Source: Halogeometricum borinquense DSM 11551 (GTDB lineage: Archaea > Halobacteriota > Halobacteria > Halobacteriales > Haloferacaceae). Taken from it: a DNA stretch of 32,000 nucleotides. Positions 674 to 30,453 of this stretch are shown one piece after another. A model generated the notes under the pieces. That model saw only the letters and a list, made by a program, of their open reading frames with translations. It was not told where the DNA came from and did not search any database. The DNA lies in contig NC_014729.1 in the NCBI RefSeq assembly GCF_000172995.2, positions 960,001 through 992,000 of the forward strand. The letters run 5' to 3'. Made by a program: the position numbers and the translations under genes. Every line of letters begins with the position of its first letter. Position 1 is the stretch's first letter.

Positions 674-676
674 CAC

Positions 677-889: not shown

Positions 890-942
890 CTCATCGGACC
901 GTCAGACGAAGTCCGACGACTTCGACGACGAATAACGAATCA

Positions 943-2134: not shown

Positions 2135-2137
2135 ACC

Positions 2138-3728: not shown

Positions 3729-3901
3729 GCGAATCAGAGACAGAACAGACGGGCGAGCACGCATCGCGCCGCACTGGTCAAGAAAACGAGTGCCGTCGCT
3801 GCGATCGTAAGCAGGGTCTCGTCGGAAAGTACGACATCAATCTGTGTCGCCAGTGCTTCCGTGAGGTCGCCCGCGACATGGGATTCAAGAAGTATCGATA
3901 A
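3725..3901 (+). CDS. rps14: 30S ribosomal protein uS14 (S14, zinc-binding type). Not in the supplied ORF track (58 aa).
   Basis: Hand translation from ATG 3725, which overlaps the L5 TGA: [58 protein letters not shown], ending at TAA 3899-3901. It has a CxxC...CxxC zinc ribbon and lies at the canonical slot between L5 and S8. Confidence 0.9.
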
Positions 3902-3903
3902 CA

Positions 3904-4296
3904 ATGGCAGGAAATGACCCCCTCTCCAACGCACTCGCTGGCGTGAACAACGCCGAGAGCGTCGGGCATCTGTCGCACGAGATACAGCCCGCCTCCAACG
4001 TCATCGGCTCCGTCCTCGAGGTCTTCTACGACCGCGGGTACATCGACGGCTTCGAGTTCGTCGACGACGGCAAAGCCGGAACGTTCGAGGTCGAACTGAA
4101 TGGCGCTATCAACAAATGTGGCGTCGTCAAGCCCCGCTACTCCGCGGGCGCAGACGAGTTCGAAAAGTGGGAGAAGCGATACCTCCCGGCCCGTGACTAC
4201 GGGACGCTCATCGTCACGACGAGTCACGGCGTCATGAGCCACTACGACGCCCGCGAACAGGGTATCGGTGGCCAAGTAATCGCCTACGTGTACTGA
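3904..4296 (+). CDS. rps8: 30S ribosomal protein uS8 (S8)
   Basis: 130 aa. [18 protein letters not shown]...[30 protein letters not shown] is the S8 signature. Confidence 0.95.
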
Positions 4297-4300
4297 GACA

Positions 4301-4837
4301 ATGAACCGAGTAGAAATCGACATTCCGGACGACGTCTCTGCCGAGGTCAAGAATCTCGACCTGACCGTCGATGGACCGAACGGGAGCGTTACGAAGACGC
4401 TCTGGTATCCCGACATCAGCGTGACCGTCGAAGACGGACAGGTCGTCATCGAATCTGAGGAGACGAACGCGAAAACGAACGCGACTATTGGCACCTTCGA
4501 GAGCCACGTAGAGAATATGCTCTACGGCGTCACCGAGGGATGGGAGTACAAGATGGAAGTCTACTACGCCCACTTCCCGATGCAGGTGAACGTGCAGGGT
4601 GACGAGGTCGTGATCGAGAACTTCCTCGGCGAGAAGTCGCCGCGACATGCAAAGGTCCGCGGCGACACGGATGTACAGGTCGACGGCGAAGAACTGGTCC
4701 TGACCGGCCCCGACAAAGAGGACGTCGGGCAGACCGCAGCCGACATCGAACAACTCACCCGCGTGAAGGACAAGGACACGCGCGTCTTCCAAGACGGCGT
4801 CTACATCACGCAGAAGCCGCAGACAGGAGGAGCCTAA
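4301..4837 (+). CDS. rpl6: 50S ribosomal protein uL6 (L6)
   Basis: 178 aa. GWEYKMEVYYAHFPMQVNVQGDEVVIENFLGEKSPR and DKDTRVFQDGVYI are typical of archaeal L6. Confidence 0.95.
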   Translation: MNRVEIDIPDDVSAEVKNLDLTVDGPNGSVTKTLWYPDISVTVEDGQVVIESEETNAKTNATIGTFESHVENMLYGVTEGWEYKMEVYYAHFPMQVNVQGDEVVIENFLGEKSPRHAKVRGDTDVQVDGEELVLTGPDKEDVGQTAADIEQLTRVKDKDTRVFQDGVYITQKPQTGGA

Positions 4838-5542
4838 ATGTCCGACGAAGAAATCCAAGAACTGGAAGACATCAGCGGTGTCGGCCCCTCGAAAGCTGAC
4901 GCACTCAGCGAGGCGGGTTACGAGTCGGTCGAAGACGTGAAGGCCGCAAACCAGTCTGAGCTTGCGGACGTCTCCGGCATCGGTAACGCCCTCGCAGCGC
5001 GTATCAAAGCCGACGTCGGCGGCCTCGAAGTCTCAGAAGAGACCGAGGCCGAAGTCGAAGAGGAAACCGACGAGGAAGAAGCAGTCGAAGAGGACGTTGA
5101 GACGGAACTCCGTCCCCGCGGCCTCGCCGACAAGACGCCGGAACTCGACGACGAGACGGCTGCCGCCCTTACGCAGAAACACCGAGAGGGCAAGCCGCAG
5201 TTCAACCGGCAAGACTACCACAAGAAAAAGCGGACGCCTACCTCGTGGCGCAAGCCCCGCGGCAACCTCTCGAAGCAGCGCCGCGGTATCAAGGGCAAGG
5301 GCGACACGGTTGAGGCGGGCTTCCGCTCGCCGAAGGCCGCCCGCGGACTCCACCCGTCCGGCTTCGAGGAAGTCCACGTCCACAACGTGGACGACCTCGA
5401 AGGCGTTGACGGCGACACGGAGGCCGTTCGAATCGCCTCCTCGGTCGGTGCTCGCAAGCGCGAGCGCATCGAGGAAGCGGCAGAGGACCGCGAAATTCGC
5501 GTTCTCAACCCCACCTACGTTGAAGTGGAGGTGGACGAATGA
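4838..5542 (+). CDS. rpl32e: 50S ribosomal protein eL32 (L32e) with the haloarchaeal N-terminal helix-hairpin-helix extension
   Basis: The C-terminal half ([36 protein letters not shown]...GFRSP) is the L32e core. The N-terminus carries two HhH-like motifs ([24 protein letters not shown]) and an acidic linker. Confidence 0.9.
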
Positions 5543-5994
5543 CCGACCTGAAAGCACAACGACGAATGGCCGCTGACGTCCTCGACGTCGGGAAGAACCG
5601 AGTCTGGTTCGACCCTGAGGCACAAAGCGACATCGCGGAAGCCATCACGCGCGAAGACATCCGCGAACTCGTTGACGACGGCACGATCCGTGCCGAAGAC
5701 GCCAAGGGTAACTCGAAGGGCCGTGCCCGCGAACGCGCCGAGAAGCGTTCCTACGGCCACCGCAAAGGACCCGGTTCCCGCAAGGGGAAGTCCGGCGGTC
5801 GGAAGAACTCGAAGGACGAATGGATCAGCCGAATCCGCGCACAGCGTCGTCGCCTGAAGGAACTGCGCGACGACGGACCACTGACGCCGACGCAGTACCG
5901 TGAACTGTACAACAAGGCGTCTGGTGGCGAATTCGATAGCGTGGACCGGCTCGAAGCATACATCACGAACAACTACGACGTGGAGATAGAATAA
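5539..5994 (+). CDS. rpl19e: 50S ribosomal protein eL19 (L19e)
   Basis: 151 aa. [43 protein letters not shown] is the L19e signature. Confidence 0.95.
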
Positions 5995-6548
5995 TGGCGA
6001 CAGGACCACGCTACAAGGTGCCGATGCGCCGTCGCCGTGAGGTTCGGACGGACTACCATCAGAGGTTGCGCCTGCTGAAATCGGGTAAACCCCGGCTCGT
6101 TGCTCGCGTGAGCAACAAGCACGTCAGGGCGCAGCTGGCTTCCCCTGGACCGAACGGAGACAACACTCACGCGGCCGCCTCCTCGGAGGATCTCGCAGAG
6201 TACGGCTGGGAAGCCCCGACGGGCAACCTCCCCAGCGCGTACCTGACGGGGTACCTCGCCGGGAAGCGGGCGCTCGAAGCCGGCCTCGAAGAGGCCGTCC
6301 TCGACATCGGCCTGAACACGGCGACGCCCGGTAACAAGGTGTTCGCAGTTCAGGAAGGAGCGATAGACGCTGGCCTCGAAATCCCGCACAACGAAGACGT
6401 ACTGGCCGAGTGGCCGCGTAACCGCGGCGAACACATCGCCGAGTACGCTGAGCAGCTCGACGAGCCGCTCTACAGCGGTGATTTCGACGCCACGAAACTG
6501 CCAGAGCACTTCGACGAAGTGCTTGAGCAACTTCAGGAGGACGCATGA
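5994..6548 (+). CDS. rpl18: 50S ribosomal protein uL18 (L18)
   Basis: 184 aa. [47 protein letters not shown] is a typical L18 sequence. It has a TAATG overlap with L19e. Confidence 0.95.
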
Positions 6549-7192
6549 GCCAACGCAACAGCAACGGCTGGGAACCGCGGACGCGGCTCGGCCGAATGGT
6601 ACAGGAGGGCGACGTCACCTCGATGGAGCAGGCGCTGGAGACCGGACTTCCGCTCAAGGAAGCCGAAATCGTCGATCAGCTCCTGCCCGGTCTCGAAGAC
6701 GAGGTGCTCGACATCAACATGGTTCAGCGCATGACCGACTCCGGTCGGCGTGTGAAGTTCCGTTGTGTCGTCGCCATCGGGAACCGCGACGGGTTCCTCG
6801 GCTACGCCGAGGCCCGAGACGACCAGGTCGGCTCGGCCATTCAGAAGGCCATCGACGTGGCGAAGCTGAACATCATCAAGGTTGACCGCGGCTCCGGTTC
6901 GTGGGAAGACTCTGCTGGTGGCCTGAACTCTCTGACGCGCAAGGCGGAAGGGAAAGCTGGCTCCGTGACGGTGGAAATCATGCCCGCACCGCAGGGCCTC
7001 GGCCTCGCGGCGGCAGAGACCGTCCGGAACATCCTCGAACTGGCCGGCGTGCAGGACGCGTGGACCCGCTCGAACGGGAACACGCGCACGACGGTCAACC
7101 TCGCCAAAGGGACGTACAACGCGCTGAAGAACGCCTCGCAGTCGCGCACCCCGCGACGCGCACGTGAGAAACAGCGGGAGGCGGGTAACTGA
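6545..7192 (+). CDS. rps5: 30S ribosomal protein uS5 (S5)
   Basis: 215 aa. [60 protein letters not shown] is the S5 dsRBD plus S5 C-terminal domain. Confidence 0.95.
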
Positions 7193-7656
7193 TGCAAGCA
7201 GTCGTTCAACTTCGCGGCGACGTGAACATGAGCGAAGCGACGCACGACACGCTGAAGATGCTCAACATCCACAGCGTGAACCACTGCGCCCTCGTCCCCG
7301 AGTCGGACACCTACCGTGGAATGATCACGAAGGTCAACGACTACGTCGCGCACGGTGAGCCGAGCGTTGACGTGGTCGAGACGCTGCTCCGAACCCGTGC
7401 AGAACCCGAAGAGGGTTCCGACACGGTCGATGCCGAGTGGCTCGAAGCGAACACCGACTACGACGACGTGACCGCGCTCGCGGAAGCGCTCATCGACGAG
7501 GAGACGACGCTGCGCGAGCAGGGTCTCTCGCCGGTGCTGCGCCTGCACCCGCCACGCGGCGGACACAAAGGGCAGAAGCACGTCACGAAAGAAGGCGGTC
7601 AGCTCGGCAAACACACGACCGAGCAGATCGACGACCTCCTGGAGGATATGCGATGA
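7192..7656 (+). CDS. rpl30: 50S ribosomal protein uL30 (L30)
   Basis: 154 aa. [50 protein letters not shown] is the L30 signature. Confidence 0.95.
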   Translation: MQAVVQLRGDVNMSEATHDTLKMLNIHSVNHCALVPESDTYRGMITKVNDYVAHGEPSVDVVETLLRTRAEPEEGSDTVDAEWLEANTDYDDVTALAEALIDEETTLREQGLSPVLRLHPPRGGHKGQKHVTKEGGQLGKHTTEQIDDLLEDMR

Positions 7657-8150
7657 CCTCGAAGAAACGACGACAGCGTGGATCCCGCACGCACGGTGGC
7701 GGTACGCACAAGAACCGGCGCGGTGCCGGTCACCGCGGTGGCCGCGGCCGCGCGGGACGCGACAAGCACGAGTATCACAACTACGAACCGATCGGGAAGC
7801 ACGGCTTCAAGCGCCCCGAGGACGCGAAAGATACCGTCGTCGAAGTGAAGGTTCAGAAGCTCGACGAGGACGCCGCACTCCTTGCAGCTGACGACCTCGC
7901 TGAGAAAGACGGTGACGCATACCAGATCGACGCACGTGACGTGGCCGAGGACGGCTACGAGGCGGACGTCGTGAAGGTGCTTGGTGGCGGACAGGTTCGT
8001 CAGGAACTGCACGTCGTCGCCGACGCGTTCACGGCCGGTGCCGTCGAACTCCTCGAAGGAGCTGGCGGCAGTGCCGATCTCTCGGAGCGTGCCGAAGAGG
8101 CACAAGCCGAAGAAGATAACACGGACGACGAGGAAGACTCCGAGGAGTAA
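7653..8150 (+). CDS. rpl15: 50S ribosomal protein uL15 (L15)
   Basis: MTSKKRRQRGSRTHGGGTHKNRRGAGHRGGRGRAGRDKHE is the L15 N-terminus. ATG 7653 overlaps the L30 TGA (7654-7656). The longer track ORF from 7437 lies inside L30 in another frame and reads as Arg-rich junk. Confidence 0.93.
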   Translation: MTSKKRRQRGSRTHGGGTHKNRRGAGHRGGRGRAGRDKHEYHNYEPIGKHGFKRPEDAKDTVVEVKVQKLDEDAALLAADDLAEKDGDAYQIDARDVAEDGYEADVVKVLGGGQVRQELHVVADAFTAGAVELLEGAGGSADLSERAEEAQAEEDNTDDEEDSEE

Positions 8151-8153
8151 CCA

Positions 8154-9620
8154 ATGGGATGGAAGGAGGCCGCCGAACCAGTGCTGACGCGGATGCCAGC
8201 AGTCGCCAGACCGGAGGGACACGTTCCGTTCCGCCGGAAGCTGGGTTGGACTGCCGGGATCCTCGTGATGTATTTCTTCCTGACGAACGTGACGATGTTC
8301 GGCCTGCAGACGCAGGGTCCGGGTGGGGACTTCTACGGACAGTTCCGTAGTATTCTCGCCGGACAGCAAGGGTCGATACTCCAACTGGGTATCGGTCCCA
8401 TCGTCACGGCGAGCATTGTCCTCCAACTGCTCGGCGGGGCCGACCTGCTCGGCCTAGACACCGACGACCCGCGTGATCAGATCCTCTACCAAGGGCTGCA
8501 GAAGCTTCTGGTGGTCGTGATGATCTGTCTCACCGGGCTTCCGATGGTATTCGCTGGGGGATTCTTACCCGCAGACCAGCAGGTCGCGCAGTCGCTCGGC
8601 GTCGGCGTCGGTGGTGTCAAAACCATCATCTTCGCACAGATGTTCGTCGGCGGCATCCTCATCCTGTTCATGGACGAGATCGTGAGCAAGTGGGGCGTCG
8701 GTTCCGGTGTCGGTCTGTTCATTATCGCGGGAGTCAGCCAGCAGCTCGTCGCCGGGCTGTTCAGCTGGCAGGCTCTTGGCGGTACGTCCGGGTTCTTCCC
8801 GACGTGGTTCGGCATCATCACCGGCGCGGCCGAAATCGGCTCGCCGCTCTCGCCGGGCGGCCTGTCCGACATCTTCCTCGGACAGGGGCAGTTGCTCGCG
8901 CTCTTGACGACGTTGTTCATCTTCGGCATCGTCGTCTACGCTGAAAGCGTGCGCATCGAAGTTCCGCTCTCCCACTCGCGTGTGAAGGGCGCCCGCGGTC
9001 GCTTCCCAGTGAAGCTCATCTACGCGAGCGTCCTGCCGATGATCCTCGTCCGCGCACTGCAGGCCAACATCCAGTTCCTCGGGCAGATCCTGAACAACTG
9101 GACCGGCCTTCCGGCGTGGCTCGGAACCTACAGCGACGGAGCGGTCACCGGGGGCCTGTTCTACTACCTCGCACCGATCCAGTCGCGCGCCGACTGGATG
9201 TGGTTCCTGGGGTACACCTCGCAGGATCCCGCGCAGATCCTCCTGCGCGTCCTCATCGACCTGGCGTTCATGATCGTCGGTGGCGCTGTCTTCGCCATCT
9301 TCTGGGTCGAGACGACGGGAATGGGTCCCGAGTCCACCGCAGAGCAGATACAAAACTCCGGGATGCAGATCCCCGGCTTCCGACGGAACCCGCAAATCAT
9401 CGAGCAAGTGATGGAACGGTACATCCCGCAGGTGACGGTTATCGGCGGTGCACTCGTCGGACTGCTCGCAGTCATGGCGAACATGCTCGGCACCATCGGC
9501 TCCGTCTCCGGAACGGGACTGCTGCTGACGGTCTCCATTACGTACAAACTGTACGAGGAGATCGCAGAAGAGCAGTTGATGGAGATGCACCCGATGATGC
9601 GCCAGATGTTCGGAGAGTAA
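8154..9620 (+). CDS. secY: Preprotein translocase subunit SecY
   Basis: 488 aa with about 10 hydrophobic segments. LGIGPIVTASIVLQLL, FPVKLIYASVLPMILVRAL and IPGFRRNPQ are SecY/Sec61alpha hallmarks. It lies at the canonical position after L15. Confidence 0.97.
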   Translation: MGWKEAAEPVLTRMPAVARPEGHVPFRRKLGWTAGILVMYFFLTNVTMFGLQTQGPGGDFYGQFRSILAGQQGSILQLGIGPIVTASIVLQLLGGADLLGLDTDDPRDQILYQGLQKLLVVVMICLTGLPMVFAGGFLPADQQVAQSLGVGVGGVKTIIFAQMFVGGILILFMDEIVSKWGVGSGVGLFIIAGVSQQLVAGLFSWQALGGTSGFFPTWFGIITGAAEIGSPLSPGGLSDIFLGQGQLLALLTTLFIFGIVVYAESVRIEVPLSHSRVKGARGRFPVKLIYASVLPMILVRALQANIQFLGQILNNWTGLPAWLGTYSDGAVTGGLFYYLAPIQSRADWMWFLGYTSQDPAQILLRVLIDLAFMIVGGAVFAIFWVETTGMGPESTAEQIQNSGMQIPGFRRNPQIIEQVMERYIPQVTVIGGALVGLLAVMANMLGTIGSVSGTGLLLTVSITYKLYEEIAEEQLMEMHPMMRQMFGE

Positions 9621-10198: not shown

Positions 10199-11080
10199 CT
10201 ATTCGGTCGTGACCGTCGTATGGGTATGAACCATCGTCGCACGATGTGTGCCCGTCCCGACTTGGAAATGAATAGTGTGGTCGCCCGGTTCGTACTCGTC
10301 ACCCAACTGTTCTGCGAGGTCGATTCGTCCGCTGGTCGATCCGTCACCGAAGTGCATGTGGCGTGCGTCGGTCGGGATCACCTCGCCGACTGGAACGTGG
10401 TCGGTATCGATGAGCGCGTGGAGATGCCCGGCGTTCGAGTTGATGCCTTCACTAACCGGTTGAATAGTGTAGTTCTCGGCGGTGACATCCCACTCGACGA
10501 CACTGCCATCGACGGTCGTATCGAGACTGAGGCTGGCCTCGTCACGAACCGTTACCTCGACGGTATCAACCAGATCGATCGCTTTGTGCACGCCGTCGCC
10601 GACCTGCAGATGGAGCGTGTGGTCGCCCGGTTCGAGTTCGAGAACACCGTCCGTCTGACCGGTTCCGTAGTGGATGTGCGAGTCGTCTGTGGGAATTATT
10701 TCACCCGGCGTGACGGGGTCGGTGTCAACGAGGATGTGGTAGTGGCCAGCGCCTTCGATTACTTCACCGGCTTTCTCGATCGTGACGCCGTCCGCAGTGG
10801 CCTTCCATTGCACGTACGTACTGGTGAGTTCCGCATCCGAGGACGGCACAGCAAACGAGATGCTAGCGTCGGGGCCGACGCCGTTCATGTACGTCTCGGA
10901 TTCAGTCGTCGTCGCCTCCTGCGTCTCGGTCGGCGTCGCTTGTTCTTCCGTCGTCGTCCCTTCGGTTTCGGTCTCGGTTCCTCCCGACTGGTTTCCGCTA
11001 CAACCGGCGAGACCGACAGCGACTGCGCTTGAAATCGTTCCGACGAACGCCCGTCTGGAAGTGTTATTATAAAGACACAT
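10199..11080 (-). CDS. Tat-exported lipoprotein with two tandem DUF4399-like His-rich domains
   Basis: The N-terminus carries a twin-arginine motif (SRRAFVG) followed by a lipobox (LAGC) and a T/E-rich linker. Two internal repeats share GHYHILVDTD...DDSHIHYGTGQTD...GDHTLHLQVGDGVH and GHLHALIDTD...DARHMHFGDGSTS...GDHTIHFQVGTGTH. Confidence 0.85.
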   Translation of the reverse strand: MCLYNNTSRRAFVGTISSAVAVGLAGCSGNQSGGTETETEGTTTEEQATPTETQEATTTESETYMNGVGPDASISFAVPSSDAELTSTYVQWKATADGVTIEKAGEVIEGAGHYHILVDTDPVTPGEIIPTDDSHIHYGTGQTDGVLELEPGDHTLHLQVGDGVHKAIDLVDTVEVTVRDEASLSLDTTVDGSVVEWDVTAENYTIQPVSEGINSNAGHLHALIDTDHVPVGEVIPTDARHMHFGDGSTSGRIDLAEQLGDEYEPGDHTIHFQVGTGTHRATMVHTHTTVTTE

Positions 11081-11141: not shown

Positions 11142-11894
11142 TCACAACACAAGTCCATCGTCAACGCGCACGACCTCGCCGTTGACGTAGGATGCGGCGT
11201 CGCTGGCCAAAAAGCGGATTACGTCCGCGATTTCCTCGGGTGTGGCAACGCGGCCGCTTGCGGTATCCGTCTCGACGGCCGATTCGTGACCCGATGAGGA
11301 TGCCAGCAAATCGGTGTCGGTGTATCCGGGAGCGACGGCGTTGACGCGGATGTCTTTTCCGCCGAGTTCGCGGGCCGCCGAACGAGTGAGTCCGAGGACG
11401 CCGGCCTTGCTCGCGGCGTAATTCGATTGGCCGGCCCACCCACGCTGGGCGGCGACGCTCGCAACGTTGACGATGCGACCGCCTCGGTCATCGCACCGCA
11501 GCATCTGTTTCGCTGCTTCTCGCGTGCAGTAGAACGTGCCCGTGAGATTCACGTCGATGACGCGCTGCCACCGTTCGGGCGTCATCCGGAGTAACAGACC
11601 GTTGTCCATCACTCCGGCGTTGTTCACGAGAATCGTCGGGTGACCGTACCGCTCGGTAACGGTCTCGAAAGTCGCCGCTACCGCGTCGAAGTCGGCGACA
11701 TCAAACTGTTCGACTGCGGTTTCGGTGGGGAGCGCGGCCAACGCGGCGGCAGTTTGCTCTGCGGCCTCGTCATCGTCGTGATAGGTTGCGACGACGGTCG
11801 CCCCCCGTTCGGCGAGTTGCTCTGCTACTGCACGGCCGATGCCTCGCGTTCCGCCTGTGACGACTGCGACCTCGCCGTCGAAGTCGTCGGTCAC
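11142..11894 (-). CDS. fabG: 3-oxoacyl-[ACP] reductase-like short-chain dehydrogenase (FabG family)
   Basis: TGGTRGIG cofactor motif, NNAG, and SNYAASKAG (YxxxK) with the upstream Ser. 4-nt overlap with fabD. It is the last gene of the acpP operon. Confidence 0.85.
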   Translation of the reverse strand: MTDDFDGEVAVVTGGTRGIGRAVAEQLAERGATVVATYHDDDEAAEQTAAALAALPTETAVEQFDVADFDAVAATFETVTERYGHPTILVNNAGVMDNGLLLRMTPERWQRVIDVNLTGTFYCTREAAKQMLRCDDRGGRIVNVASVAAQRGWAGQSNYAASKAGVLGLTRSAARELGGKDIRVNAVAPGYTDTDLLASSSGHESAVETDTASGRVATPEEIADVIRFLASDAASYVNGEVVRVDDGLVL

Positions 11895-12856
11895 GCAAAC
11901 ACCTCCTGAGCGTTCGCGGGCGTTTCGAGTGTGAGACAGTCGGCGTCCGGCGCGATTCGTTCGACGAGCGTCGATAGCACCCCGGCCGGCGGGAACTCGA
12001 CGAATCGCTCGATGCCCTGTGCGCGAAGTTCTTCGACGACACGGACCCAGTCAACTGCCGACGTAATCTGGTTCGACAGGTCTCGACGGGCGACGCTCGG
12101 CTTCGTGTACACTTCGCCGCTCACGTCGGAGACGACCGGAATATCGGCTTCGCGGAGCGTCACGTCGGCCATCGCCGTTTCGACACAATCGACAGCCGAC
12201 GCCATCACCGGTGAGTGGAACGCCGCACCGACATCGAGTTCGTGGAAGCGAACCGTCGTCCGCTCGTCGAGTCGCTCCTCCACCGCTTTCACTCCCGCAG
12301 TGGTGCCGCTGATGACGGCCTGCTTCGGTGCGTTGTACAGGGCGATACCGACATCCTCCCGGCAGGCACACGCTTTTTCGACCTCGTCTCGGGTAGCCAG
12401 GAGGACAGCAATCATCGTTCCCGGGCCATCAGCCGCGGCCGCCTGCTCCATGCAGTTCCCCCGCTGGTGCGTGAGTTTGGCCGTCTCGGCAGGGGATATC
12501 GCCCCCGCAGCCCCCAGCGCGGTAAAGTGGCCGAGACTGTGGCCGGCGACGAGCGTCGGTTCGACATCGAAACGAGCGGTGACGCCCTCGTAGACCGCGA
12601 GACCGGTCGCCAGTAACACCGGTTGGGTGATACTCGGCTGTTGTAGCTTCTCTGTTGTTCCTTCGAAGCACAACTCCGTGAGGTCGATATCAAGCGCGGA
12701 ATCGAGACGGTCGAACAGCGCACGCGTCTCGGGCCAGTCGTCGTAGAACGCTCGTCCCATACCGACGGTTTGGCTTCCCTGTCCGGGGAAGAGGAACGCT
12801 GTTCCGTCGAGCGTGGATGGTGAATGTTCGGTCGTCATTGTGGTGGTGTGAATCAA
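11891..12856 (-). CDS. fabD: Malonyl-CoA:ACP transacylase (FabD family)
   Basis: FLFPGQGSQTVGMG start motif and GHSLGHFTALGAAG nucleophile elbow. Its length of 321 aa is typical of FabD. It overlaps acpS and fabG by 4 nt each. Confidence 0.9.
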   Translation of the reverse strand: MIHTTTMTTEHSPSTLDGTAFLFPGQGSQTVGMGRAFYDDWPETRALFDRLDSALDIDLTELCFEGTTEKLQQPSITQPVLLATGLAVYEGVTARFDVEPTLVAGHSLGHFTALGAAGAISPAETAKLTHQRGNCMEQAAAADGPGTMIAVLLATRDEVEKACACREDVGIALYNAPKQAVISGTTAGVKAVEERLDERTTVRFHELDVGAAFHSPVMASAVDCVETAMADVTLREADIPVVSDVSGEVYTKPSVARRDLSNQITSAVDWVRVVEELRAQGIERFVEFPPAGVLSTLVERIAPDADCLTLETPANAQEVFA

Positions 12857-13329
12857 ATACGGCGATTAGTGGTTCGTCTCGCTGTACCGACGACAGTCAC
12901 CGATCCGATGGCGTATCCTGCGGTCTGATCGTGGGTCAGACTGACTGCGATGTCGGCAGTCTCGGGCTGGACGTCGCATGCGTCAAGTGTCGCATCGAGC
13001 GCGTCGGATGCGACGGGAGCCAGTGACAGTCGAGGGCCGTCGGGTCGGCGGTCGATTTCGATGGCGGCGGTCGGGACACCGGGTGAGGAACCGGCCAGCG
13101 TCTTCAGGAATGCTTCTTTGGCTGCCCAGCGGGCGGCGTAGTGCTGCGGTGGGTCGCCCTGCGCCTCGCAGTAGGCCTGCTCGGCCGGAGTGAATACTCG
13201 GCCGCGGAACGAATCGCCGAACTCCGCAAGAAGGTCGGCAATGCGGTCGATAGCCACCACATCGACGCCGTGTCTAACTGTGGGGCCAGTGTTTCGAGCG
13301 ACGTCGGGCGCTTCGTCGGACATGGTCAC
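12853..13329 (-). CDS. acpS: Holo-[ACP] synthase (AcpS-type 4'-phosphopantetheinyl transferase)
   Basis: GVDVVAIDRIADLL...FTPAEQAYC......HYAARWAAKEAFLKTLG matches the AcpS family core. It lies between fabF and fabD with 4-nt overlaps. Confidence 0.85.
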   Translation of the reverse strand: MTMSDEAPDVARNTGPTVRHGVDVVAIDRIADLLAEFGDSFRGRVFTPAEQAYCEAQGDPPQHYAARWAAKEAFLKTLAGSSPGVPTAAIEIDRRPDGPRLSLAPVASDALDATLDACDVQPETADIAVSLTHDQTAGYAIGSVTVVGTARRTTNRRI

Positions 13330-14549
13330 GGCTGCTCGAAGACGAGTGCGCCGTTCGTTCCGCCGAACCCGGCCGACGTGCTGACAGCGACGTCAACGTC
13401 CATCGCTCGGGCTTCGGCGACGACCGGCAGATCACAGTCTGAATCGGATGTCTCGTAGTTCATCGTCGGCGGAATCGTTCCCTCGGCAATCGTCTGTGCG
13501 ACGATAGCGGCTTCGATAGCACCGGCGGCCCCGAGTGCGTGTCCGAGGTGGCCCTTGACGCTCGTGGTTGGCGGCACATCCGTCTCCGAGAACACCGTAT
13601 TGAGGGCTTCGGCCTCACGCGCGTCGCCAATCGGTGTGCTCGTCGCGTGCGCGTTAACGTGATCTACGGCGGCCGGGTCTCTGCCAGCGTCCTTCAGCGC
13701 TCGCTCGATACATCGGCGGAGCCCATCTCCCGACTCGGCCGGGCGCGTGACGTGGTGTGCGTCAGCAGATCGGCCTGCACCGGTCACGGCCGCATACGGG
13801 GTCGCGTCACGCTCACGAGCGTGGTCGCGCGATTCCAGGATGACAATACCGCAGCCCTCCGCGAGAACCAACCCGTCTCGGTCGGCGTCGAACGGGCGAC
13901 TCGCCGCGGCAGGGTCGGCAGCGCGAGTGCTGAGCGCCCGCATTGAGTCGAAACTCCCGACGCCGAGCGGCGAGATTGAGGCCTCAGTTCCGCCGGCGAT
14001 GACGACATCGGCGCGTCCGCGCCGAATATCGTCGGCTGCGGCCGCGATGGCGTGGGTGCCCGCCGAACACGCCGTTCCGGGTGCGCGGTTCGGTCCCTTC
14101 GCGCCGACAGCCATACTGACGTGCCCGGCCGCGAGGTTCGTCAACGCGCGTACGAGGAACGACGGGGAGGGACGAGAACCGGCCGCGGCTTCGATCTCCG
14201 AAAGTCCAGCCAGTCCGGAGCCGATGCTGGTTCCCGCGCGTTCCGGTGTCCACGCGGGATCGACGGGATCGAATCCGGCGTCTTCGAGCGCCTCGGCAGC
14301 GGCGGCGACGGCGAACTGCGTGTACCGCCCCATCGTTCGGTCGTCAATGCGGTCGTCGGACGTGTCGGCCGCTGGGTCCGTTCCGATCTCGCATGCGACG
14401 TTGGCGCGTACGTTGGCCTCGTCGGGATCAAACCGCGTTATCGGACCCGCGCCGCTCCGCTCGTCGAGCAGTCCCGCCCACGTGCTGTCGGCTGTCTCTC
14501 CGAGCGCGGTCACCAGACCGATGCCTGTCACGACGACGTCCCGTTCCAT
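13326..14549 (-). CDS. fabF: Beta-ketoacyl-[ACP] synthase II-like condensing enzyme (FabF/KAS II family)
   Basis: VVVTGIGLVTALG, active-site TACSAGTHAI (Cys), NAHATSTPIGD (His), KGHLGHALGAAG (His) and a C-terminal GFGGTNGALVF. The complete Cys-His-His elongating ketosynthase triad is present. Confidence 0.92.
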   Translation of the reverse strand: MERDVVVTGIGLVTALGETADSTWAGLLDERSGAGPITRFDPDEANVRANVACEIGTDPAADTSDDRIDDRTMGRYTQFAVAAAAEALEDAGFDPVDPAWTPERAGTSIGSGLAGLSEIEAAAGSRPSPSFLVRALTNLAAGHVSMAVGAKGPNRAPGTACSAGTHAIAAAADDIRRGRADVVIAGGTEASISPLGVGSFDSMRALSTRAADPAAASRPFDADRDGLVLAEGCGIVILESRDHARERDATPYAAVTGAGRSADAHHVTRPAESGDGLRRCIERALKDAGRDPAAVDHVNAHATSTPIGDAREAEALNTVFSETDVPPTTSVKGHLGHALGAAGAIEAAIVAQTIAEGTIPPTMNYETSDSDCDLPVVAEARAMDVDVAVSTSAGFGGTNGALVFEQP

Positions 14550-14550
14550 G

Positions 14551-14796
14551 TTAGGTCCGCTCGGTGACGTACGCCGTCAGGTCGCCGACCGTCTCTAGCT
14601 CTTCGAGGTCCTCGTCGGGGATGTGGACGCCGACGTCGGCTTCGATGGCCTCGGCGATTTCGACGAGGTCCAGCGAATCGGCATCGAGCGTTTCGCCGTC
14701 GAACGGTGTCTCGGCGTCGAAATCGCCAGTATCGACGCGCAATCGCTCTTCGACGATGCCTTCGATGTGGTCCGTGGTATCTTGGCTATCGGCCAT
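14551..14796 (-). CDS. acpP: Acyl carrier protein
   Basis: 81 aa and very acidic. LDADSLDLVEIAEAIE contains the DSL phosphopantetheine-attachment serine motif in the expected helix II context. Its stop lies 1 nt before the fabF ATG. Confidence 0.88.
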   Translation of the reverse strand: MADSQDTTDHIEGIVEERLRVDTGDFDAETPFDGETLDADSLDLVEIAEAIEADVGVHIPDEDLEELETVGDLTAYVTERT

Positions 14797-14864: not shown

Positions 14865-15830
14865 TCAGGGCGTCAGGACCACTTTTCCGACTGTCTCGCG
14901 GTTGGCGAGGGCGTCGTGAGCCTGCTGTGGCTCCGAAAGCGGAACCGTTCGATCAACGACGACTTCGACCTGACCGGACGCGAGATGGTCGATCACGGAC
15001 GGCACAGCTTCGAGTACGCGTTCTGGGACATGGTCGAGCGCGTGTTCGAGATGGTAGCCGATGACGGATTGATTCGCAAAGAACAGTCGCGGTGTCGCCA
15101 CAGTCGGCACTGAGCCGCTCGCCATCCCGAACGTCACGATTCGACCGACTGGCGCGAGTGCCTCGACGCTGGCAGCGAACGCGTTGCCGCCGACGCCGTC
15201 AACGACCAAATCGACACCATCGGTTCGGGACAGGACCGCGTCCGCCACGTCAACGTCCGTGTAGTCGATGGCGTGATCGGCACCGAGGTCTCTGGTGAGT
15301 TCACGCTTTTCGGCGGTACTGGCGGTGGCGAGTACGGTCGCTCCGGCGGCGTCTGCGAACTGGACGGCGAGTGAACCGACGCCCCCTGCTCCAGCATGGA
15401 CCAATACTCGCTCATCCGGTGACAGGTTGCCCCACTCGTGGAGGACGTTGTGGGCGGTCAACCCTTGGACCGGCAGCGCGGTCGCCGCAGCCCATGAGAG
15501 CGATTCCGGGATCCGGAACGTCTGTTCGGCTGGTGCGGTCGCGCGTTCTGCGTACCCCCCGCTCGACGTGAGTGCGGCAACCCGGTCACCGACCGCAAGG
15601 TCGCTCCCGGCTGGAGCGGTCCTGACAGTTCCAGCAACCTCCAATCCGGGGACGAACGGTGGCGACGGGCTATCGGGGTAATTGCCTCTGCGTTGCTCGA
15701 TGTCGGCGAAGTTGACGCCGACGGCCGCGACATCGATGCTGACCTCGCCCTCACTCGGTGTCGGCGCTGGTCGGTCCGTTATCGTCAGAACGGAACTGTC
15801 TCCGTATTCGGTGACTTCGACGGCGCGCAC
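14865..15830 (-). CDS. Zinc-independent MDR-family NADPH oxidoreductase (quinone oxidoreductase / enoyl reductase-like)
   Basis: MRAVEVTEYGDSSVL..., PFVPGLEVAGTV, and the HAGAGGVGSLAVQ Rossmann motif. It lacks the catalytic and structural zinc Cys ligands of ADHs. GTG start lies 2 nt after the stop of the R2-like gene. Confidence 0.8.
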   Translation of the reverse strand: MRAVEVTEYGDSSVLTITDRPAPTPSEGEVSIDVAAVGVNFADIEQRRGNYPDSPSPPFVPGLEVAGTVRTAPAGSDLAVGDRVAALTSSGGYAERATAPAEQTFRIPESLSWAAATALPVQGLTAHNVLHEWGNLSPDERVLVHAGAGGVGSLAVQFADAAGATVLATASTAEKRELTRDLGADHAIDYTDVDVADAVLSRTDGVDLVVDGVGGNAFAASVEALAPVGRIVTFGMASGSVPTVATPRLFFANQSVIGYHLEHALDHVPERVLEAVPSVIDHLASGQVEVVVDRTVPLSEPQQAHDALANRETVGKVVLTP

Positions 15831-15832
15831 GG

Positions 15833-16681
15833 TCAGTTCACCGTCCCATGCTCGGACTCGGCTCCACGAGAGAGTTGCGCCAGTCGGTCACGTCGCTTCC
15901 GAACTGCGAACGCGGTGAGGTCGTCGCTGTCGGGACCGGGGAGGCGTCTCCAACCCATTCGCTCGACAACGGCATCGACCGGTTCTGCGAGCGTCTCGAC
16001 CGTTTCCTCGACGAACGACCGCTCGACTGCTGTACGCTGGAGGAGTTCAGCGAGTTGATTCATGCCGTACCCGACGTGCCGTCCCTCGTCCTGCCGAACG
16101 TGACTGATTCCCTCGACAAGGCCCGGAAGTGACGGTCCGTCCGTCTCCGGGTCGAACGTCGCCTCGATGGCGTGAAACCCGGTCTGACCGAAGACGCCTT
16201 CGACCGTCAGGTGGTAGTGGCAGTACGCGTTGGCGCGGTTGGTTGGCGTATCGTCGTCGAGGAGTTGGTTCATCGCCGTTTCCGTCCGATTGAATATCTC
16301 CTCGTAGGCGGCAGTGAACCATCGGTCGGCCGTCGGATCGGTCGGGTCCAATCCGCGGGCGTCTTCCGCCGGTCTGATGACGTCTTTCCAGTAGCGCTCG
16401 AAGAAGGCGGCATGCTTGGCCTCCTCGTAGATGTGGCTGGCGACGAATCGTTGGTCGGTTTTGTTCGTCGTAGTTGCGGCCAGCGGAACCAGATCTTCGG
16501 TCACGTTCTCCTCGCCCGCGCCGAACATTGCAATCGTCGCGCGTAACTGTGTAAACGCGCTCCGGCCGAGGTCGGAAATCGCCGCTCGGTCGGCAGCCAA
16601 GTCTATCTCGTATGGACTCCAATGGCGCTCGGTCGCGTGCCTGAAGTATCGCTCTGCTCGCCCCCGATTCTCCGCAGACAT
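15833..16681 (-). CDS. R2-like ferritin-fold di-metal carboxylate protein (ribonucleotide reductase small-subunit family, R2lox/R2c-like, no radical Tyr)
   Basis: HWSPYEIDLAADRAAI resembles the R2 N-terminal W-P-E-I-D-L motif. Candidate metal ligands are GEENVTEDL (E), YEEAKHAAFF (ExxH), LTVEGVFGQTGF (E) and RQDEGRHVGYG (ExxH). I chose ATG 16681 as the start; the track ORF starts at GTG 16726. Confidence 0.8.
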   Translation of the reverse strand: MSAENRGRAERYFRHATERHWSPYEIDLAADRAAISDLGRSAFTQLRATIAMFGAGEENVTEDLVPLAATTTNKTDQRFVASHIYEEAKHAAFFERYWKDVIRPAEDARGLDPTDPTADRWFTAAYEEIFNRTETAMNQLLDDDTPTNRANAYCHYHLTVEGVFGQTGFHAIEATFDPETDGPSLPGLVEGISHVRQDEGRHVGYGMNQLAELLQRTAVERSFVEETVETLAEPVDAVVERMGWRRLPGPDSDDLTAFAVRKRRDRLAQLSRGAESEHGTVN

Positions 16682-16741
16682 ATCCGCTCTGTTGGACGCT
16701 CCGGTGAATAAGACTGGCCGTTCCACTCGCTCAGCAGAGCG

Positions 16742-25175: not shown

Positions 25176-25880
25176 TCACCGGGTCGCCTGCTTCCACGCC
25201 TGTCGGTCGAGACGGCCGCCGTCGAGTTCGTCTCGGTCGGCTTCGGTGGCGGCCCACACGTACATCGGTGCGACGTCGTCGGCGTCACGTCCCTGACCGT
25301 CAGTTAGCCCGGTGGCAACCAGTCCGGGGTCAACGACACCGATAACGGGTGCAACGTCGGCGGCGAACTGTCGGGCCAGTCCCTCGACGGCCGCTTTCGA
25401 GACGGCGTACGCGCCCATACCCGGCTTGGGATCGTGTGCGATGGACCCCGACGGAACGAGAACACGCGTGTCGTCGTTCACGTGCGGCAGCGCCTCACGA
25501 ACTGCGGTGAAAACACCGCGAACGTTCGTCCGGATGGTGTCGTCGAATCTGGTGTAAGACTCCTCGTGAACCGGCATCTCACCTGGAGTCCCGTGGTTCA
25601 CGGCGGCGTTTGGGACGAGGACAGCGATGCCGTCGTCGTCGCCGCTTCGTGCAGCAGTCTCCATCAGTCGTTCGACGTCGTACTCGTCGCGTACGTCGGC
25701 GCGAACCGCCTCGGCGGATCCGGGTGTGTCTGCCACGTTCGCCACGACATCGGAGAGCGCATCCTCGTCGCGGGCACAGCAGACGACGTGTGCGCCTTCC
25801 GCAGCGAACGCCCGGACAAGGGCTACGCCGATTCCCCGACTCGCACCTGTTACGACGACCGTCTTTCCTGACACGTCCAT
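25176..25880 (-). CDS. Short-chain dehydrogenase/reductase (SDR) family oxidoreductase
   Basis: VVVTGASRGIG, NAAV and YAVSKAAVEGL (YxxxK) motifs. Divergent from crtD. Confidence 0.85.
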   Translation of the reverse strand: MDVSGKTVVVTGASRGIGVALVRAFAAEGAHVVCCARDEDALSDVVANVADTPGSAEAVRADVRDEYDVERLMETAARSGDDDGIAVLVPNAAVNHGTPGEMPVHEESYTRFDDTIRTNVRGVFTAVREALPHVNDDTRVLVPSGSIAHDPKPGMGAYAVSKAAVEGLARQFAADVAPVIGVVDPGLVATGLTDGQGRDADDVAPMYVWAATEADRDELDGGRLDRQAWKQATR

Positions 25881-25955
25881 ACGTCCGCTTCGGACGAATC
25901 CGAGGTAAAGCCACAGCTTCCGGTCCCCGATATCGAACCTCTCACAGTCAGTCGA

Positions 25956-25961
25956 TTTATA
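25956..25961 (+). promoter_or_regulatory. TATA box (TTTATA) about 28 nt upstream of the crtD ATG. Implies a leaderless or near-leaderless crtD-lyeJ-cruF transcript.
   Basis: gtcgaTTTATAgtttc is seen in the sequence. The spacing to ATG 25987 matches archaeal TATA-TSS distance. Confidence 0.35.
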
Positions 25962-25986
25962 GTTTCATCGTCCCTAGGAATGCGAT

Positions 25987-27489
25987 ATGAATGCTGTCTC
26001 GGACCTCTCCGTCCTCGACGGAACGTCCGTGGTCGTTGTCGGTGGGGGATTCGGCGGACTATCGACGGCGTGTTACCTCGCCGACGCCGGTGCTACCGTG
26101 ACAGTACTTGAGAAAAACGAGCAGTTAGGCGGCCGGGCCAGTCGTCTCGAACGGGACGGCTTCCGCTTCGATATGGGACCGTCATGGTACTTGATGCCAG
26201 ACGTGTTCGAGGACTTTTTCGGATACTTCGACCGAACGCCTTCGGACTACTACGAACTCACGCGACTGGACCCCCACTACCGAATCTTCTTCAAGGACGG
26301 CGACCGGGTTGATATGGTTCCAGACCTCGAACAGAACCGCGAGACGTTCGAGGCGTACGAACCCGGTGCGGGCAAGCAGTTCGAGAAATATCTGCAGAAG
26401 GCCGAGAAGAACTATGAGGTGGGGATGGAACATTTCGTCTACACCGACCGGACGAAACTATCCGATTTCGCAGACTGGGACGTCATCAAGAACGCGCGGG
26501 GCCTGTCGCTCATCGGGTCGATGCAGGACCACGTCGAGAAGTACTTCGACCATCCGAAACTCCAGCAGATAATGCAGTACACGCTGGTGTTCCTCGGCGG
26601 CGCGCCGAACAACACGCCCGCGCTGTACAACCTGATGAGTCACGTAGATTTCAACATGGGCGTCTACTACCCCGACGGCGGCCTCGGCGGCGTCGTGGAC
26701 GGGATGGTCTCCTTGGGCGAGGAACTCGGCGTCGAGTTCCGCGTCGAGAGCCCGGTAAACGAGATTCGCGGCCGCGAGGAGGCGTTCGTCACGCGCACCG
26801 AGGACGGCCGGGAGTTCTACTCCGACTACGTCGTCAGCGACGCCGACTACCGGCACACCGAGATGGACCTCTTACCCGAGGGCAAGCGGCAGTACGACGA
26901 GGATTACTGGCAGTCGCGGACGTATGCACCCTCCGCTTACTTACTTTACCTCGGCGTCGAGGGCGACGTACCCGAACTCGAACATCATACGCTGGTCCTG
27001 CCGACGGACTGGGACGACCATTTCGAGAAGATATTCGACGACCCGGCGTGGCCCGACGACCCGGCGTACTATCTCTGTGTTCCCTCGAAAACGGACGACA
27101 CTGTCGCTCCGGAAGGCCATTCGAACCTGTTCGTTCTCGTCCCCATCGCGGCAGGATTGGACGATACGCCCGAGCAACGCGAACGCTACCGTGATCTCGT
27201 CTTAGACGACATCGCAGCACACACCGGAGAGGACCTACGGGACCGAATCGTCCTCGAAGAGTCGTTCTGCGTAGACGACTTCTCCGACCGGTACAACGCG
27301 ACGCAAGGGACGGCACTCGGTCTCGCGCACACACTCCGACAGACGGCACTCCTCCGCCCGCCGCATCACTCTGAGGAGGTTTCTGGCCTGTACTTCACCG
27401 GGTCGTTCACAACGCCCGGTATCGGCGTCCCGATGTGTCTCATCAGCGGCCAACTGACGGCCGAAAAGATGGCCGAACGGATGGCGTAA
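25987..27489 (+). CDS. crtD: Phytoene desaturase-family FAD oxidoreductase, carotenoid 3,4-desaturase of the bacterioruberin pathway
   Basis: N-terminal dinucleotide fold VVVVGGGFGGLSTACYLADAGATVTVLEKNEQLGGRA and C-terminal GLYFTGSFTTPGIGVPMCLISG, typical of the CrtI family. It is the first gene of the crtD-lyeJ-cruF order known from haloarchaeal C50 carotenoid clusters. Confidence 0.85.
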   Translation: MNAVSDLSVLDGTSVVVVGGGFGGLSTACYLADAGATVTVLEKNEQLGGRASRLERDGFRFDMGPSWYLMPDVFEDFFGYFDRTPSDYYELTRLDPHYRIFFKDGDRVDMVPDLEQNRETFEAYEPGAGKQFEKYLQKAEKNYEVGMEHFVYTDRTKLSDFADWDVIKNARGLSLIGSMQDHVEKYFDHPKLQQIMQYTLVFLGGAPNNTPALYNLMSHVDFNMGVYYPDGGLGGVVDGMVSLGEELGVEFRVESPVNEIRGREEAFVTRTEDGREFYSDYVVSDADYRHTEMDLLPEGKRQYDEDYWQSRTYAPSAYLLYLGVEGDVPELEHHTLVLPTDWDDHFEKIFDDPAWPDDPAYYLCVPSKTDDTVAPEGHSNLFVLVPIAAGLDDTPEQRERYRDLVLDDIAAHTGEDLRDRIVLEESFCVDDFSDRYNATQGTALGLAHTLRQTALLRPPHHSEEVSGLYFTGSFTTPGIGVPMCLISGQLTAEKMAERMA

Positions 27490-28331
27490 TGAACGCACGC
27501 GGCCGACTCGAATACCTGCTCACGCTCTCGCGCCCGCGGTTTTGGCTCTACCTCGCCGGACCCGTCGCCGTCGGCGTCGCCTTCGCCGCAACGGCCGTGA
27601 GCGACCTGCTCAGCCCTGCCGCCCTCGTCCTGTTCGGCTACTTTCTCCTGCCGGGGAATATTCTCCTCTACGGCGTCAACGACGCCTTCGACGCCGACGT
27701 AGATGAGGCGAACCCGAAGAAAGACGACAGAGAGGCGCGGTGGCAGGGCGACACCGTCGTCACCGCCGTCATCGTCGCGTCTGGCGTTCTCGGTCTCGGA
27801 CTGTTCGCTGTCGCCCCCCGACTCACGTGGCCGTACCTCGCCGGATTCTTCCTCCTCGGCGTGGAGTACAGCGCGCCGCCGTTCCGGTTCAAGACGACGC
27901 CGTTTCTCGATTCGGTATCGAACGGTCTGTACATCTTGCCGGGCGCGGCGGCGTTCGCGGCCGTCGCCGGACAACACCCACCACTCTCTGCCCTCGTCGG
28001 CGCGTGGGCATGGACGATGGGGATGCACACGTTCTCTGCCATCCCCGACATCGAACCGGACCGTACGGCAGGTATCCGCACGACAGCCACATTTCTCGGC
28101 GAACGTCGAACGTACGCGTACTGTTTCGCCTGCTGGCTGGTTGCCGCCGCTGCCTTCGCGCTCGTGGACTGGCGACTGGGTGCGGTGTTGTCGGCGTACC
28201 CACTCGCTGTTCTCGCCGTCGCCCGCTCCGAAATCTCAGTCGAACGTGCGTACTGGTGGTATCCCGTGTTGAACACGGTTATCGGCGCAACCCTCACAAT
28301 GGGTGCGCTCTGGAGATTGTTCTATGGTTGA
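27489..28331 (+). CDS. lyeJ: UbiA-family prenyltransferase, lycopene elongase/hydratase
   Basis: About 8 TM helices. The Asp-rich motif NDAFDADVDEANPKK (NDxxDxxxD) is present. TAATG overlap with crtD. I chose ATG 27489; the track ORF from 27435 begins inside crtD. Confidence 0.85.
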   Translation: MNARGRLEYLLTLSRPRFWLYLAGPVAVGVAFAATAVSDLLSPAALVLFGYFLLPGNILLYGVNDAFDADVDEANPKKDDREARWQGDTVVTAVIVASGVLGLGLFAVAPRLTWPYLAGFFLLGVEYSAPPFRFKTTPFLDSVSNGLYILPGAAAFAAVAGQHPPLSALVGAWAWTMGMHTFSAIPDIEPDRTAGIRTTATFLGERRTYAYCFACWLVAAAAFALVDWRLGAVLSAYPLAVLAVARSEISVERAYWWYPVLNTVIGATLTMGALWRLFYG

Positions 28332-29223: not shown

Positions 29224-29244
29224 GCGTCGTTGACGCGACGCCAG

Positions 29245-30261: not shown

Positions 30262-30453
30262 TGTAGGATATCGAATGACGGCACCCTCGGAGCGATTGCA
30301 ACGCGCCCACACATCTGCCAGACACTATTAACACTCGCAGTGACATAACCGTTCGTGACAAGCCTTAACTTGATACGGACCTACACCGTGGTATTCAGTC
30401 AAAAACGCCGTACAATGAGTCGATCGACGGTGGCACTCCCGAAACGATTCCGG

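Follow-up and report, generated by a model that had tools for sequence, protein, structure and literature searches.

A 32,000-nt stretch of the Halogeometricum borinquense chromosome (the window, to which all coordinates given without a locus number refer) contains at positions 15833–16681 of the minus strand an open reading frame (ORF) of 282 aa, which had originally been predicted from the letters alone to encode an R2-like di-metal protein, an orphan lacking its large subunit and embedded in an acyl carrier protein (ACP) gene cluster. The ORF opens a run of seven closely packed genes on the minus strand, which encode, in order, a protein like R2lox (the R2-like ligand-binding oxidases), a medium-chain dehydrogenase/reductase (MDR), an ACP, a beta-ketoacyl-ACP synthase (KS), AcpS, FabD (malonyl-CoA:ACP transacylase, MCAT) and FabG (3-oxoacyl-ACP reductase, KR), so that the embedding in an ACP cluster is as described. 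Gene families were assigned from Pfam and NCBIfam matches and catalytic motifs were read directly, giving the following features.

16706–16711, minus strand: TTATTC, a TATA-like candidate archaeal promoter found by direct reading, centred approximately 27 nt 5' of the ATG.
15833–16681, minus strand: gene for an R2lox-like ferritin-fold di-metal oxidase of clade I (linked to the ACP module; clades described below), 282 aa.
14865–15830, minus strand: Zn-free MDR of the quinone-oxidoreductase/PIG3 type, with PGLEVAG where Zn-dependent alcohol dehydrogenases have GHE.
14551–14796, minus strand: ACP of 81 aa with a DSL phosphopantetheine motif and a net charge of -24.
13326–14549, minus strand: FabF-like elongating KS, with Cys in ACSAG, His in HATST and His in GHLGHALGAAG.
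12853–13329, minus strand: holo-ACP synthase (AcpS-type phosphopantetheinyl transferase, PPTase), with a 4-nt overlap with the KS stop.
11891–12856, minus strand: MCAT (FabD-like, GHSLGH), with a 4-nt overlap with the AcpS stop.
11142–11894, minus strand: FabG-like KR, the last gene of the conserved unit, with a 4-nt overlap with the MCAT stop.

The R2lox-like ORF runs from an ATG at 16681 to a TGA stop at 15835–15833; an alternative GTG at 16726 would extend it N-terminally by 15 residues, and the ATG was preferred because orthologues begin at this position. The TGA is followed by two nucleotides (cc) and then by the GTG at 15830 with which the MDR gene starts, the spacing originally predicted. 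Intergenic gaps along the unit are, in order, 2, 68, 1, -4, -4 and -4 nt, and at four of the loci from other genomes described below (L008, L011, L019 and L020) the stop of R2lox and the start of the gene after it overlap; these short or negative gaps and stop-start overlaps suggest translational coupling. The upstream TTATTC, to be regarded as a candidate promoter from its letters and position, would fit a leaderless archaeal operon transcript. The translation includes RHWSPYEIDL, GAGEENVTEDL, YEEAKHAAFFERYW, HYHLTVEGVFGQTGF and VRQDEGRHVGYG, and every motif on which the original prediction relied (HWSPYEIDL, the E/ExxH/E/ExxH ligand pattern and a Glu as first ligand) was found in it. The predicted metal ligands are E57, E87, H90, E161, E199 and H202, the position of the radical Tyr, four residues past the first ligand His, is occupied by F94, and residues 242–250 read MGWRRLPGP. 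Judged by ORF lengths there is no NrdA-, NrdE- or NrdJ-sized gene in the window, none of the complete ORFs exceeding 500 aa, in agreement with the description of the gene as an orphan. BLASTP gave a 100% match to a cluster representative named 'ribonucleoside-diphosphate reductase [Halogeometricum borinquense]', the representative differing from the window translation by one residue, and public records name the protein a ribonucleotide reductase (RNR) beta subunit.

R2lox proteins are built on a ferritin-fold scaffold with a Mn/Fe (or Fe/Fe) site bridged by carboxylate, and an aliphatic ligand is accommodated in a hydrophobic tunnel. On the evidence of its sequence and a structural model, the protein annotated as an RNR small subunit is a member of this family. 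The sole Pfam match is to PF00268 (RNR small chain; 40 bits against a cut-off of 33.6), and this match, the public names, the Phe at the radical-Tyr site and the Glu first ligand would all suit a class Ic (R2c-type) RNR small subunit with a NrdA partner encoded elsewhere. However, the only strong NCBIfam matches are to five R2lox models (up to 119 bits, E 3e-34), whereas NrdB models score 13–15 bits against cut-offs near 310. A phmmer search of all Protein Data Bank (PDB) sequences likewise returned R2lox chains only (E 7e-20 to 3e-15), comprising Geobacillus kaustophilus R2loxI (GkR2loxI; E about 1e-19) and its variants, Sulfolobus R2loxI/II, Saccharopolyspora R2lox and M. tuberculosis R2lox, plus one weak match to an aldehyde-deformylating oxygenase (ADO; E 0.0045, partial, 67 residues), and no NrdB chain, that of Chlamydia R2c included, was recovered even at E<=1. 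When aligned with GkR2loxI (residue numbering follows PMC10867098), E57, E87, H90, E161, E199 and H202 correspond to E69, E102, H105, E167, E202 and H205, F94 corresponds to F109 with no Tyr at this site, and V60 and Y156 correspond to V72 and Y162. The latter pair forms the R2lox-specific tyrosine-valine ether cross-link (GkR2loxI V72/Y162 in the numbering of PMC10867098; properties in PMC9314684), a feature beyond those originally noticed. E57, V60, E87, H90, F94, Y156, E161, E199 and H202 are invariant across 128 haloarchaeal relatives, and with V60 and Y156 kept in all intact sequences the cross-link itself may form.

An AlphaFold2 model built from a 30-sequence alignment (mean pLDDT 92.5) was compared with the PDB using Foldseek, and ranks 1–33 were all R2lox (E 1e-10 to 4e-8, TM-score 0.71–0.84, 22–25% identity), with R2c and other R2 proteins ranking below these 33 chains at approximately 16% identity. 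The protein shares with the solved R2lox structures (GkR2loxI 4HR0, MtR2lox 3EE4, SaR2loxI/II 6QRZ/7QBK and SeR2lox 7QBP) the ferritin/R2 fold, as predicted, six identical ligands with Glu first, the Phe at the radical-Tyr site, the Val/Tyr pair, small residues at the GkR2loxI G68 and A171 positions (here G56 and G165) and a proline loop between the last helices. It differs from them in its low identity, in having Phe169 for GkR2loxI Tyr175, in the MGW(K/R)(R/H)LPGP form of the loop, in the absence of a conserved C-terminal tail and in its ACP-linked operon context resembling fatty acid synthesis (FAS). With R2c (Chlamydia trachomatis NrdB, 1SYY) it has in common the overall fold, the Glu first ligand and the Phe, but R2c goes undetected by sequence search, lacks the Val/Tyr pair context and works with NrdA. 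The conserved R1-binding C-terminal tail of an RNR small subunit was not found, the last 12–15 residues being unconserved within clade I, and in 21 loci the gene appears to be coupled in translation to genes of a lipid type. The combination of Glu and Phe, originally taken to be of the R2c or R2lox type, is therefore narrowed to R2lox by phmmer, Foldseek and the Val/Tyr pair, the protein stands apart from bona fide class Ic NrdB, and an RNR subunit is ruled out by sequence, fold and gene context to the point of being effectively refuted. Genes of this kind are widely misannotated as ribonucleotide reductase.

A search of 1.84 billion representative proteins found 600 relatives at E<=1e-3 and only 15 at E<=1e-30, so that the haloarchaeal group appears compact and set apart from other R2lox-like proteins, to which it is 30–35% identical. 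Ten unusually long proteins were examined among the distant relatives, and in seven of them an SCP2 lipid-carrier domain is fused to the R2lox-like domain (N- or C-terminal fusions, among them P0383, P0416, P0420, P0457, P0462 and P0510), whilst in one (P0475) the fusion partner is an alpha/beta-hydrolase. A passage of PMC9314684 citing Kumar 2020 reports haloarchaeal R2lox genes clustered with ferredoxin and sterol-carrier genes. The SCP2 fusions make delivery of an aliphatic substrate by a carrier look like a theme of the family, with ACP as the carrier in clade I, and the fusion architectures with SCP2 or hydrolase domains may help to define R2lox substrates generally.

The haloarchaeal R2lox-like proteins form two clades. 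In a neighbour-joining tree of the 128 relatives all proteins encoded beside ACP module genes fall in one of them, clade I, to which the H. borinquense protein belongs. Ligands, F94, V60 and Y156 are invariant in both clades, and the stand-alone clade-II proteins (e.g. Natrialba 'beta subunit 2') are 44–52% identical to those of clade I. Differences between the clades are Ala81/Ser82 in clade I versus Thr/Thr in clade II, Ala92 versus Asp two residues past the ligand His, Gly165 versus Ala (GkR2loxI A171) and Phe169 versus Tyr (GkR2loxI Tyr175); in addition, an acidic C-terminal tail (IPDVDELxxLE) is conserved in clade II and absent from clade I. The clearest contrast lies at residues 242–250, a loop between the last two long helices of the model, which is a near-invariant MGW(K/R)(R/H)LPGP in clade I and variable and Asp/Glu-rich in clade II. 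Over residues 236–250 the mean numbers of K+R/D+E are 2.1/2.0 in clade I versus 0.5/4.7 in clade II, and the mean net charge of the whole protein is -22 versus -39. A proline-bearing flexible loop between helices G and H has been reported to close the R2lox ligand tunnel (PMC9314684), and by position and proline content in the model residues 242–250 probably correspond to it. This loop, acidic in clade II, may in clade I be a docking surface for ACP.

Loci carrying these genes were gathered from plasmid searches, from look-ups of exact proteins and from pattern scans of genomes and metagenomes; the scans with the single protein gave few loci, at least seven in genomes and at least five in metagenomes. 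All seven genes stand in collinear order in the window and 13 other loci, which represent at least seven genera and include plasmids and metagenomes, namely those of Haloterrigena sp. H1, Natrinema hispanicum (two strains), N. limicola, Haloarcula pellucida, Har. amylovorans, Haloferax sp. S1W, Hfx. mediterranei pHM500, Halostella sp. PRR32, a Natronolimnohabitans sp., Natronorubrum bangense and two metagenome contigs; two short contigs are compatible with the same order. In an all-against-all ORF comparison nothing outside the seven genes was common to different genera, and the unit extends from the start of R2lox to the stop of KR. Its behaviour is that of a mobile island, found several times on megaplasmids.

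Association of R2lox and ACP genes is retained in five rearranged variants. In L011 two inserted genes separate R2lox-MDR from ACP-KS-AcpS, and in L012 R2lox-MDR stands alone, the ACP-KS-AcpS-MCAT-KR unit (L021) being 226 kb distant on that chromosome. In L019 only MCAT follows R2lox, and L025 has R2lox-MDR-KR on one strand and a divergent ACP-KS-AcpS-MCAT on the other. In L024 (Natrinema sp. SYSU A 869) a frameshifted R2lox-like gene, split into two ORFs at 11947–12833 (a frameshift or a pseudogene), is followed by MDR-ACP-KS-AcpS and an apparent fused MCAT-KR gene; this last, at 15776–17467 of L024, is a 1692-nt gene annotated 'FabG' in the place of MCAT and KR. All 21 clade-I loci examined adjoin genes of the ACP system despite unrelated flanks and rearrangements, which bears out the original suggestion that the link to ACP, KS, KR and enoyl reductase genes is meaningful, whereas none of the four clade-II loci with known context has ACP genes nearby (L006, L009, L026 and L027). 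The ACP unit also occurs without R2lox (L022, L031, L032 and L034), and clade-I R2lox was never seen without the ACP system among the 21 loci. An accessory tailoring enzyme would be expected to show such a one-way dependency. No report linking R2lox to an ACP cluster was found in the open-access papers searched.

Archaea are generally described as lacking ACP systems (PMC3533463; bioRxiv 10.1101/2024.07.05.601840), a few having gained ACP, AcpS and MCAT by transfer from bacteria (PMC3533463). The module described here has several parts of a type II FAS: an ACP with the DSL serine, AcpS, FabD, an elongating KS with a Cys-His-His triad and FabG. Its MDR also matches the enoyl reductase domains of FAS and polyketide synthases and the mitochondrial enoyl reductase MECR, and from these matches is likely to be the enoyl-thioester reductase of the module. 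Mitochondrial type II FAS (ACP, PPTase, MCAT, KS, KR, HTD2 and MECR) is similar in having a discrete ACP, a PPTase, an MCAT, a FabF-like KS, a KR of the SDR family and an enoyl reductase, in the haloarchaeal unit a likely one, of the MDR family rather than of the FabI type. The haloarchaeal unit differs in lacking a dehydratase, in an MDR nearer to zeta-crystallin quinone oxidoreductases than to MECR and, in clade-I loci, in the added R2lox-like oxidase. No 3-hydroxyacyl-ACP dehydratase (FabZ/FabA or MaoC type) was found in the module, in the window or in any module locus, and a CBS-MaoC haloarchaeal protein from L010 used as a dehydratase probe had no match in the window or in any other locus. 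The occurrence of a mobile, ACP-dependent, FAS-like unit with an MDR-type reductase is thereby documented across many Halobacteria.

With moderate confidence we propose that clade-I R2lox is an O2-dependent tailoring oxygenase acting on the acyl chain of a dedicated ACP. A haloarchaea-specific clade of R2lox would have become an accessory of a horizontally mobile, ACP-dependent gene set resembling type II FAS. AcpS would convert apo-ACP into holo-ACP, FabD would load malonate, and KS, KR, a dehydratase acting in trans and the MDR as enoyl reductase would build an acyl chain on the ACP. In L018 and L023 the R2lox-like gene is directly preceded by a gene for a 2Fe-2S ferredoxin, which is plausible as the donor of electrons; it would reduce the R2lox-like enzyme, after which the reduced di-metal site would activate O2 and oxidise the ACP-borne or freshly released acyl chain within the tunnel. 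The very acidic ACP would dock on the non-acidic MGW(K/R)(R/H)LPGP loop at the tunnel mouth. Hydroxylation would be the most likely outcome, with desaturation or C-C cleavage as alternatives; it is favoured because R2lox proteins co-purify with C16/C18 hydroxy fatty acids (PMC9314684), because formation of the R2lox cross-link is two-electron chemistry (PMC9314684) and because GkR2loxI has been reported to consume alkanes (PMC10867098). BioI (CYP107H1), cyanobacterial ADO with acyl-ACP reductase and plant stearoyl-ACP desaturase may be seen as analogues in that each is O2-dependent and obtains an aliphatic substrate from an ACP system, and ADO and stearoyl-ACP desaturase are in addition ferritin-fold di-iron proteins. 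By sequence the protein belongs to none of these families, and the analogy is one of function only.

R2lox has been studied structurally and spectroscopically since 2009 and its physiological substrate is still debated (PMC9314684). The original view of a family in want of a functional clue is slightly dated in that a 2024 paper claims alkane hydroxylation by GkR2loxI, with modest effects seen in crude lysates only (PMC10867098), and that induction of a haloarchaeal (Halorientalis) R2lox on hexadecane is cited in a passage of PMC9314684. The R2lox family itself was already known; new here is a distinct subclade that has a conserved surface loop of its own and whose genes always accompany an ACP-dependent system for chain building. 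Since clade-I genes are tied to a dedicated ACP with its loading enzymes and to KS, KR and a likely enoyl reductase, the cognate acyl-ACP becomes a named candidate substrate with a named partner protein and the question becomes testable, in tractable hosts such as Haloferax mediterranei.

Several points weigh against a tailoring role on acyl-ACP. In the solved R2lox structures the carboxylate of a fatty acid binds the metals, a geometry incompatible with a thioester-tethered chain, and either the omega end would therefore have to enter first or a released acid would have to be the substrate. Without a dehydratase, a FabH-type initiating KS or a thioesterase, the module might be unable to produce a long saturated chain. 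It is conceivable that the MDR works for R2lox and not for FAS, as the two remain together in L012. Many of the 21 loci are phylogenetically related, with independent observations numbering nearer 10–12, and the tree is rough, carries no support values and is rooted on a partial GkR2loxI sequence. The best of the NCBIfam R2lox models, NF006200, gives 118.9 bits where its cut-off is 194, and all five models fall below their cut-offs; since these models are narrow equivalogs the low scores reflect divergence and not membership of another family.

Among other explanations, the module might be a cofactor-precursor FAS like that of mitochondria, in which R2lox is an analogue of BioI making pimeloyl-ACP and the versions without R2lox supply octanoyl-ACP for lipoylation. 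In Haloferax sp. S1W a bioB-bioU-bioF-bioD operon lies 105 nt downstream of the seven-gene module on the same strand, and as this is a late biotin pathway short only of a source of pimeloyl thioester, a BioI-like role of R2lox in making pimeloyl-ACP is suggested. H. borinquense and Hfx. mediterranei have, besides the module, the same four-gene operon elsewhere, and no pimelate genes could be recognised next to it. The module adjoins gcvTHP and glyA in L025, the unit without R2lox in L034 lies approximately 4 kb from lipA, glyA, gcvP and lpd, and a cytochrome P450 gene lies near the R2lox-less unit of L031. LipM, an octanoyl transferase, is widely retained in Halobacteriales (PMC3904984), and mitochondrial FAS II relies on an enoyl reductase of the MDR type (bioRxiv 10.1101/2024.07.05.601840). 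However, the biotin adjacency is confined to one locus, no more being found when all loci and the window were probed with S1W BioB, BioU, BioF and BioD. A 97%-identical bio operon of Hfx. larsenii has no module upstream, the bio operons examined on plasmids are self-contained and without the module, and BioB occurs in more than 700 haloarchaeal clusters, among which are many genera missing from the KS match list, so that the module is not a general source of pimelate. Lipoate and glycine-cleavage genes were found by the probes only in L025 and L034, no further module locus having bio, lip or gcv genes within 10 kb. Adjacency to biotin genes at one locus and to lipoate or glycine-cleavage genes at two thus hints weakly at a role in cofactor-precursor supply, and as a general explanation of the module it appears improbable. 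A bolder version, which is also rather unlikely, would make clade I the first R2lox with an identifiable physiological partner, an acyl-ACP-directed Mn/Fe oxygenase in an archaeal 'cofactor FAS'; in its strongest form R2lox would be a non-haem BioI analogue serving bioB-bioU-bioF-bioD, with the ACP unit giving LipM its octanoyl-ACP. If true, this would fill two archaeal gaps, the sources of pimelate and of the octanoyl donor.

A catabolic monooxygenase for alkanes or long-chain hydrocarbons, for which the adjacency of ACP genes would have no mechanistic meaning, would accord with the partly GkR2loxI-dependent loss of alkanes in crude lysates (PMC10867098), with the hexadecane induction and the clustering with ferredoxin and SCP genes cited in the passages of PMC9314684 mentioned above, and with the ferredoxin gene upstream in L018 and L023. 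This is unlikely for clade I, where linkage to ACP genes is clade-wide and survives rearrangement and where genes for beta-oxidation, an acyl-CoA ligase or an alcohol or aldehyde dehydrogenase are absent from the module; an alkane role would suit the stand-alone clade II better. Equally, the ferritin-fold di-metal site and the weak phmmer match to ADO might suggest an enzyme resembling ADO or a decarboxylase, turning an ACP-derived aldehyde or acid into a hydrocarbon, or an analogue of acyl-ACP desaturases, there being ferritin-like, ACP-fed precedents in ADO and the plant acyl-ACP desaturases (general knowledge; PMC9314684). MtR2lox and SeR2lox, however, have no ADO activity (PMC9314684), the module has no acyl-ACP reductase gene, the ADO match is the sole one and too partial to place the protein in that family, and no Pfam match to the acyl-ACP desaturase family was obtained, so that this explanation too is judged unlikely. 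A non-catalytic protein for lipid binding or storage, or a remnant gene carried with the island, would fit the absence of demonstrated turnover for R2lox with co-purified ligands (PMC9314684) and the frameshifted copy in L024, but is very improbable given metal ligands and cross-link residues invariant over 128 sequences and a conserved clade-specific loop.

Units without R2lox have neighbours of their own. On the flanks of the ACP-KS-AcpS-MCAT-KR units of L031 and L022 (regions L031 3151–7735 and 12359–13774 and L022 7324–9601) lie a divergent MDR and GNAT acyltransferases, two or three in number and one of them with an SCP2 domain; these GNATs may be N-acyl transferases using acyl-ACP. L031 also has genes for a P450 and an aldehyde dehydrogenase, and the P450 may be a non-orthologous oxygenase partner of the ACP unit. 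Genes for lipoyl synthase, glycine cleavage, serine hydroxymethyltransferase and dihydrolipoamide dehydrogenase stand beside the ACP unit in L034 (1–4526) and L025 (1–4749) in unrelated arrangements, and the unit may supply octanoyl-ACP for lipoylation. Separately, the bioB-bioU-bioF-bioD operon of haloarchaea is compact and looks mobile, lying on plasmids or beside an integrase (L008 15830–19996, L028, L029, L030 and L033). It has BioU in place of BioA and no recognisable pimelate-synthesis gene beside it, and BioU is annotated 'transcriptional regulator' or 'hypothetical protein' in several records.

Two genes flanking the unit in the window were considered as parts of it and rejected, as neither is conserved with the module elsewhere. 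One, directly upstream of the operon on the same strand (16742–17545, minus strand), encodes a protein with a pair of CBS domains and a C-terminal region, to the eye ParB/sulfiredoxin-like, that bears a DGHHR motif; the other is a downstream DUF4399 gene (10199–11080). A ribosomal-protein operon with SecY as its last gene (8154–9620) occupies positions 1–9620, the left third of the window, placing the ACP island near a core housekeeping region of the H. borinquense chromosome. At 25176–30312, 9 kb upstream of the module, lies a bacterioruberin-type carotenoid block comprising genes for an SDR, a phytoene-desaturase-like amine oxidase, a probable UbiA prenyltransferase, a CruF-like Caroten_synth protein and phytoene synthase. 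The same block is present 2 kb upstream of the R2lox-MDR pair of L012 (2862–7868; Natrialbaceae archaeon AArc-T1-2), which may be coincidence or a link.

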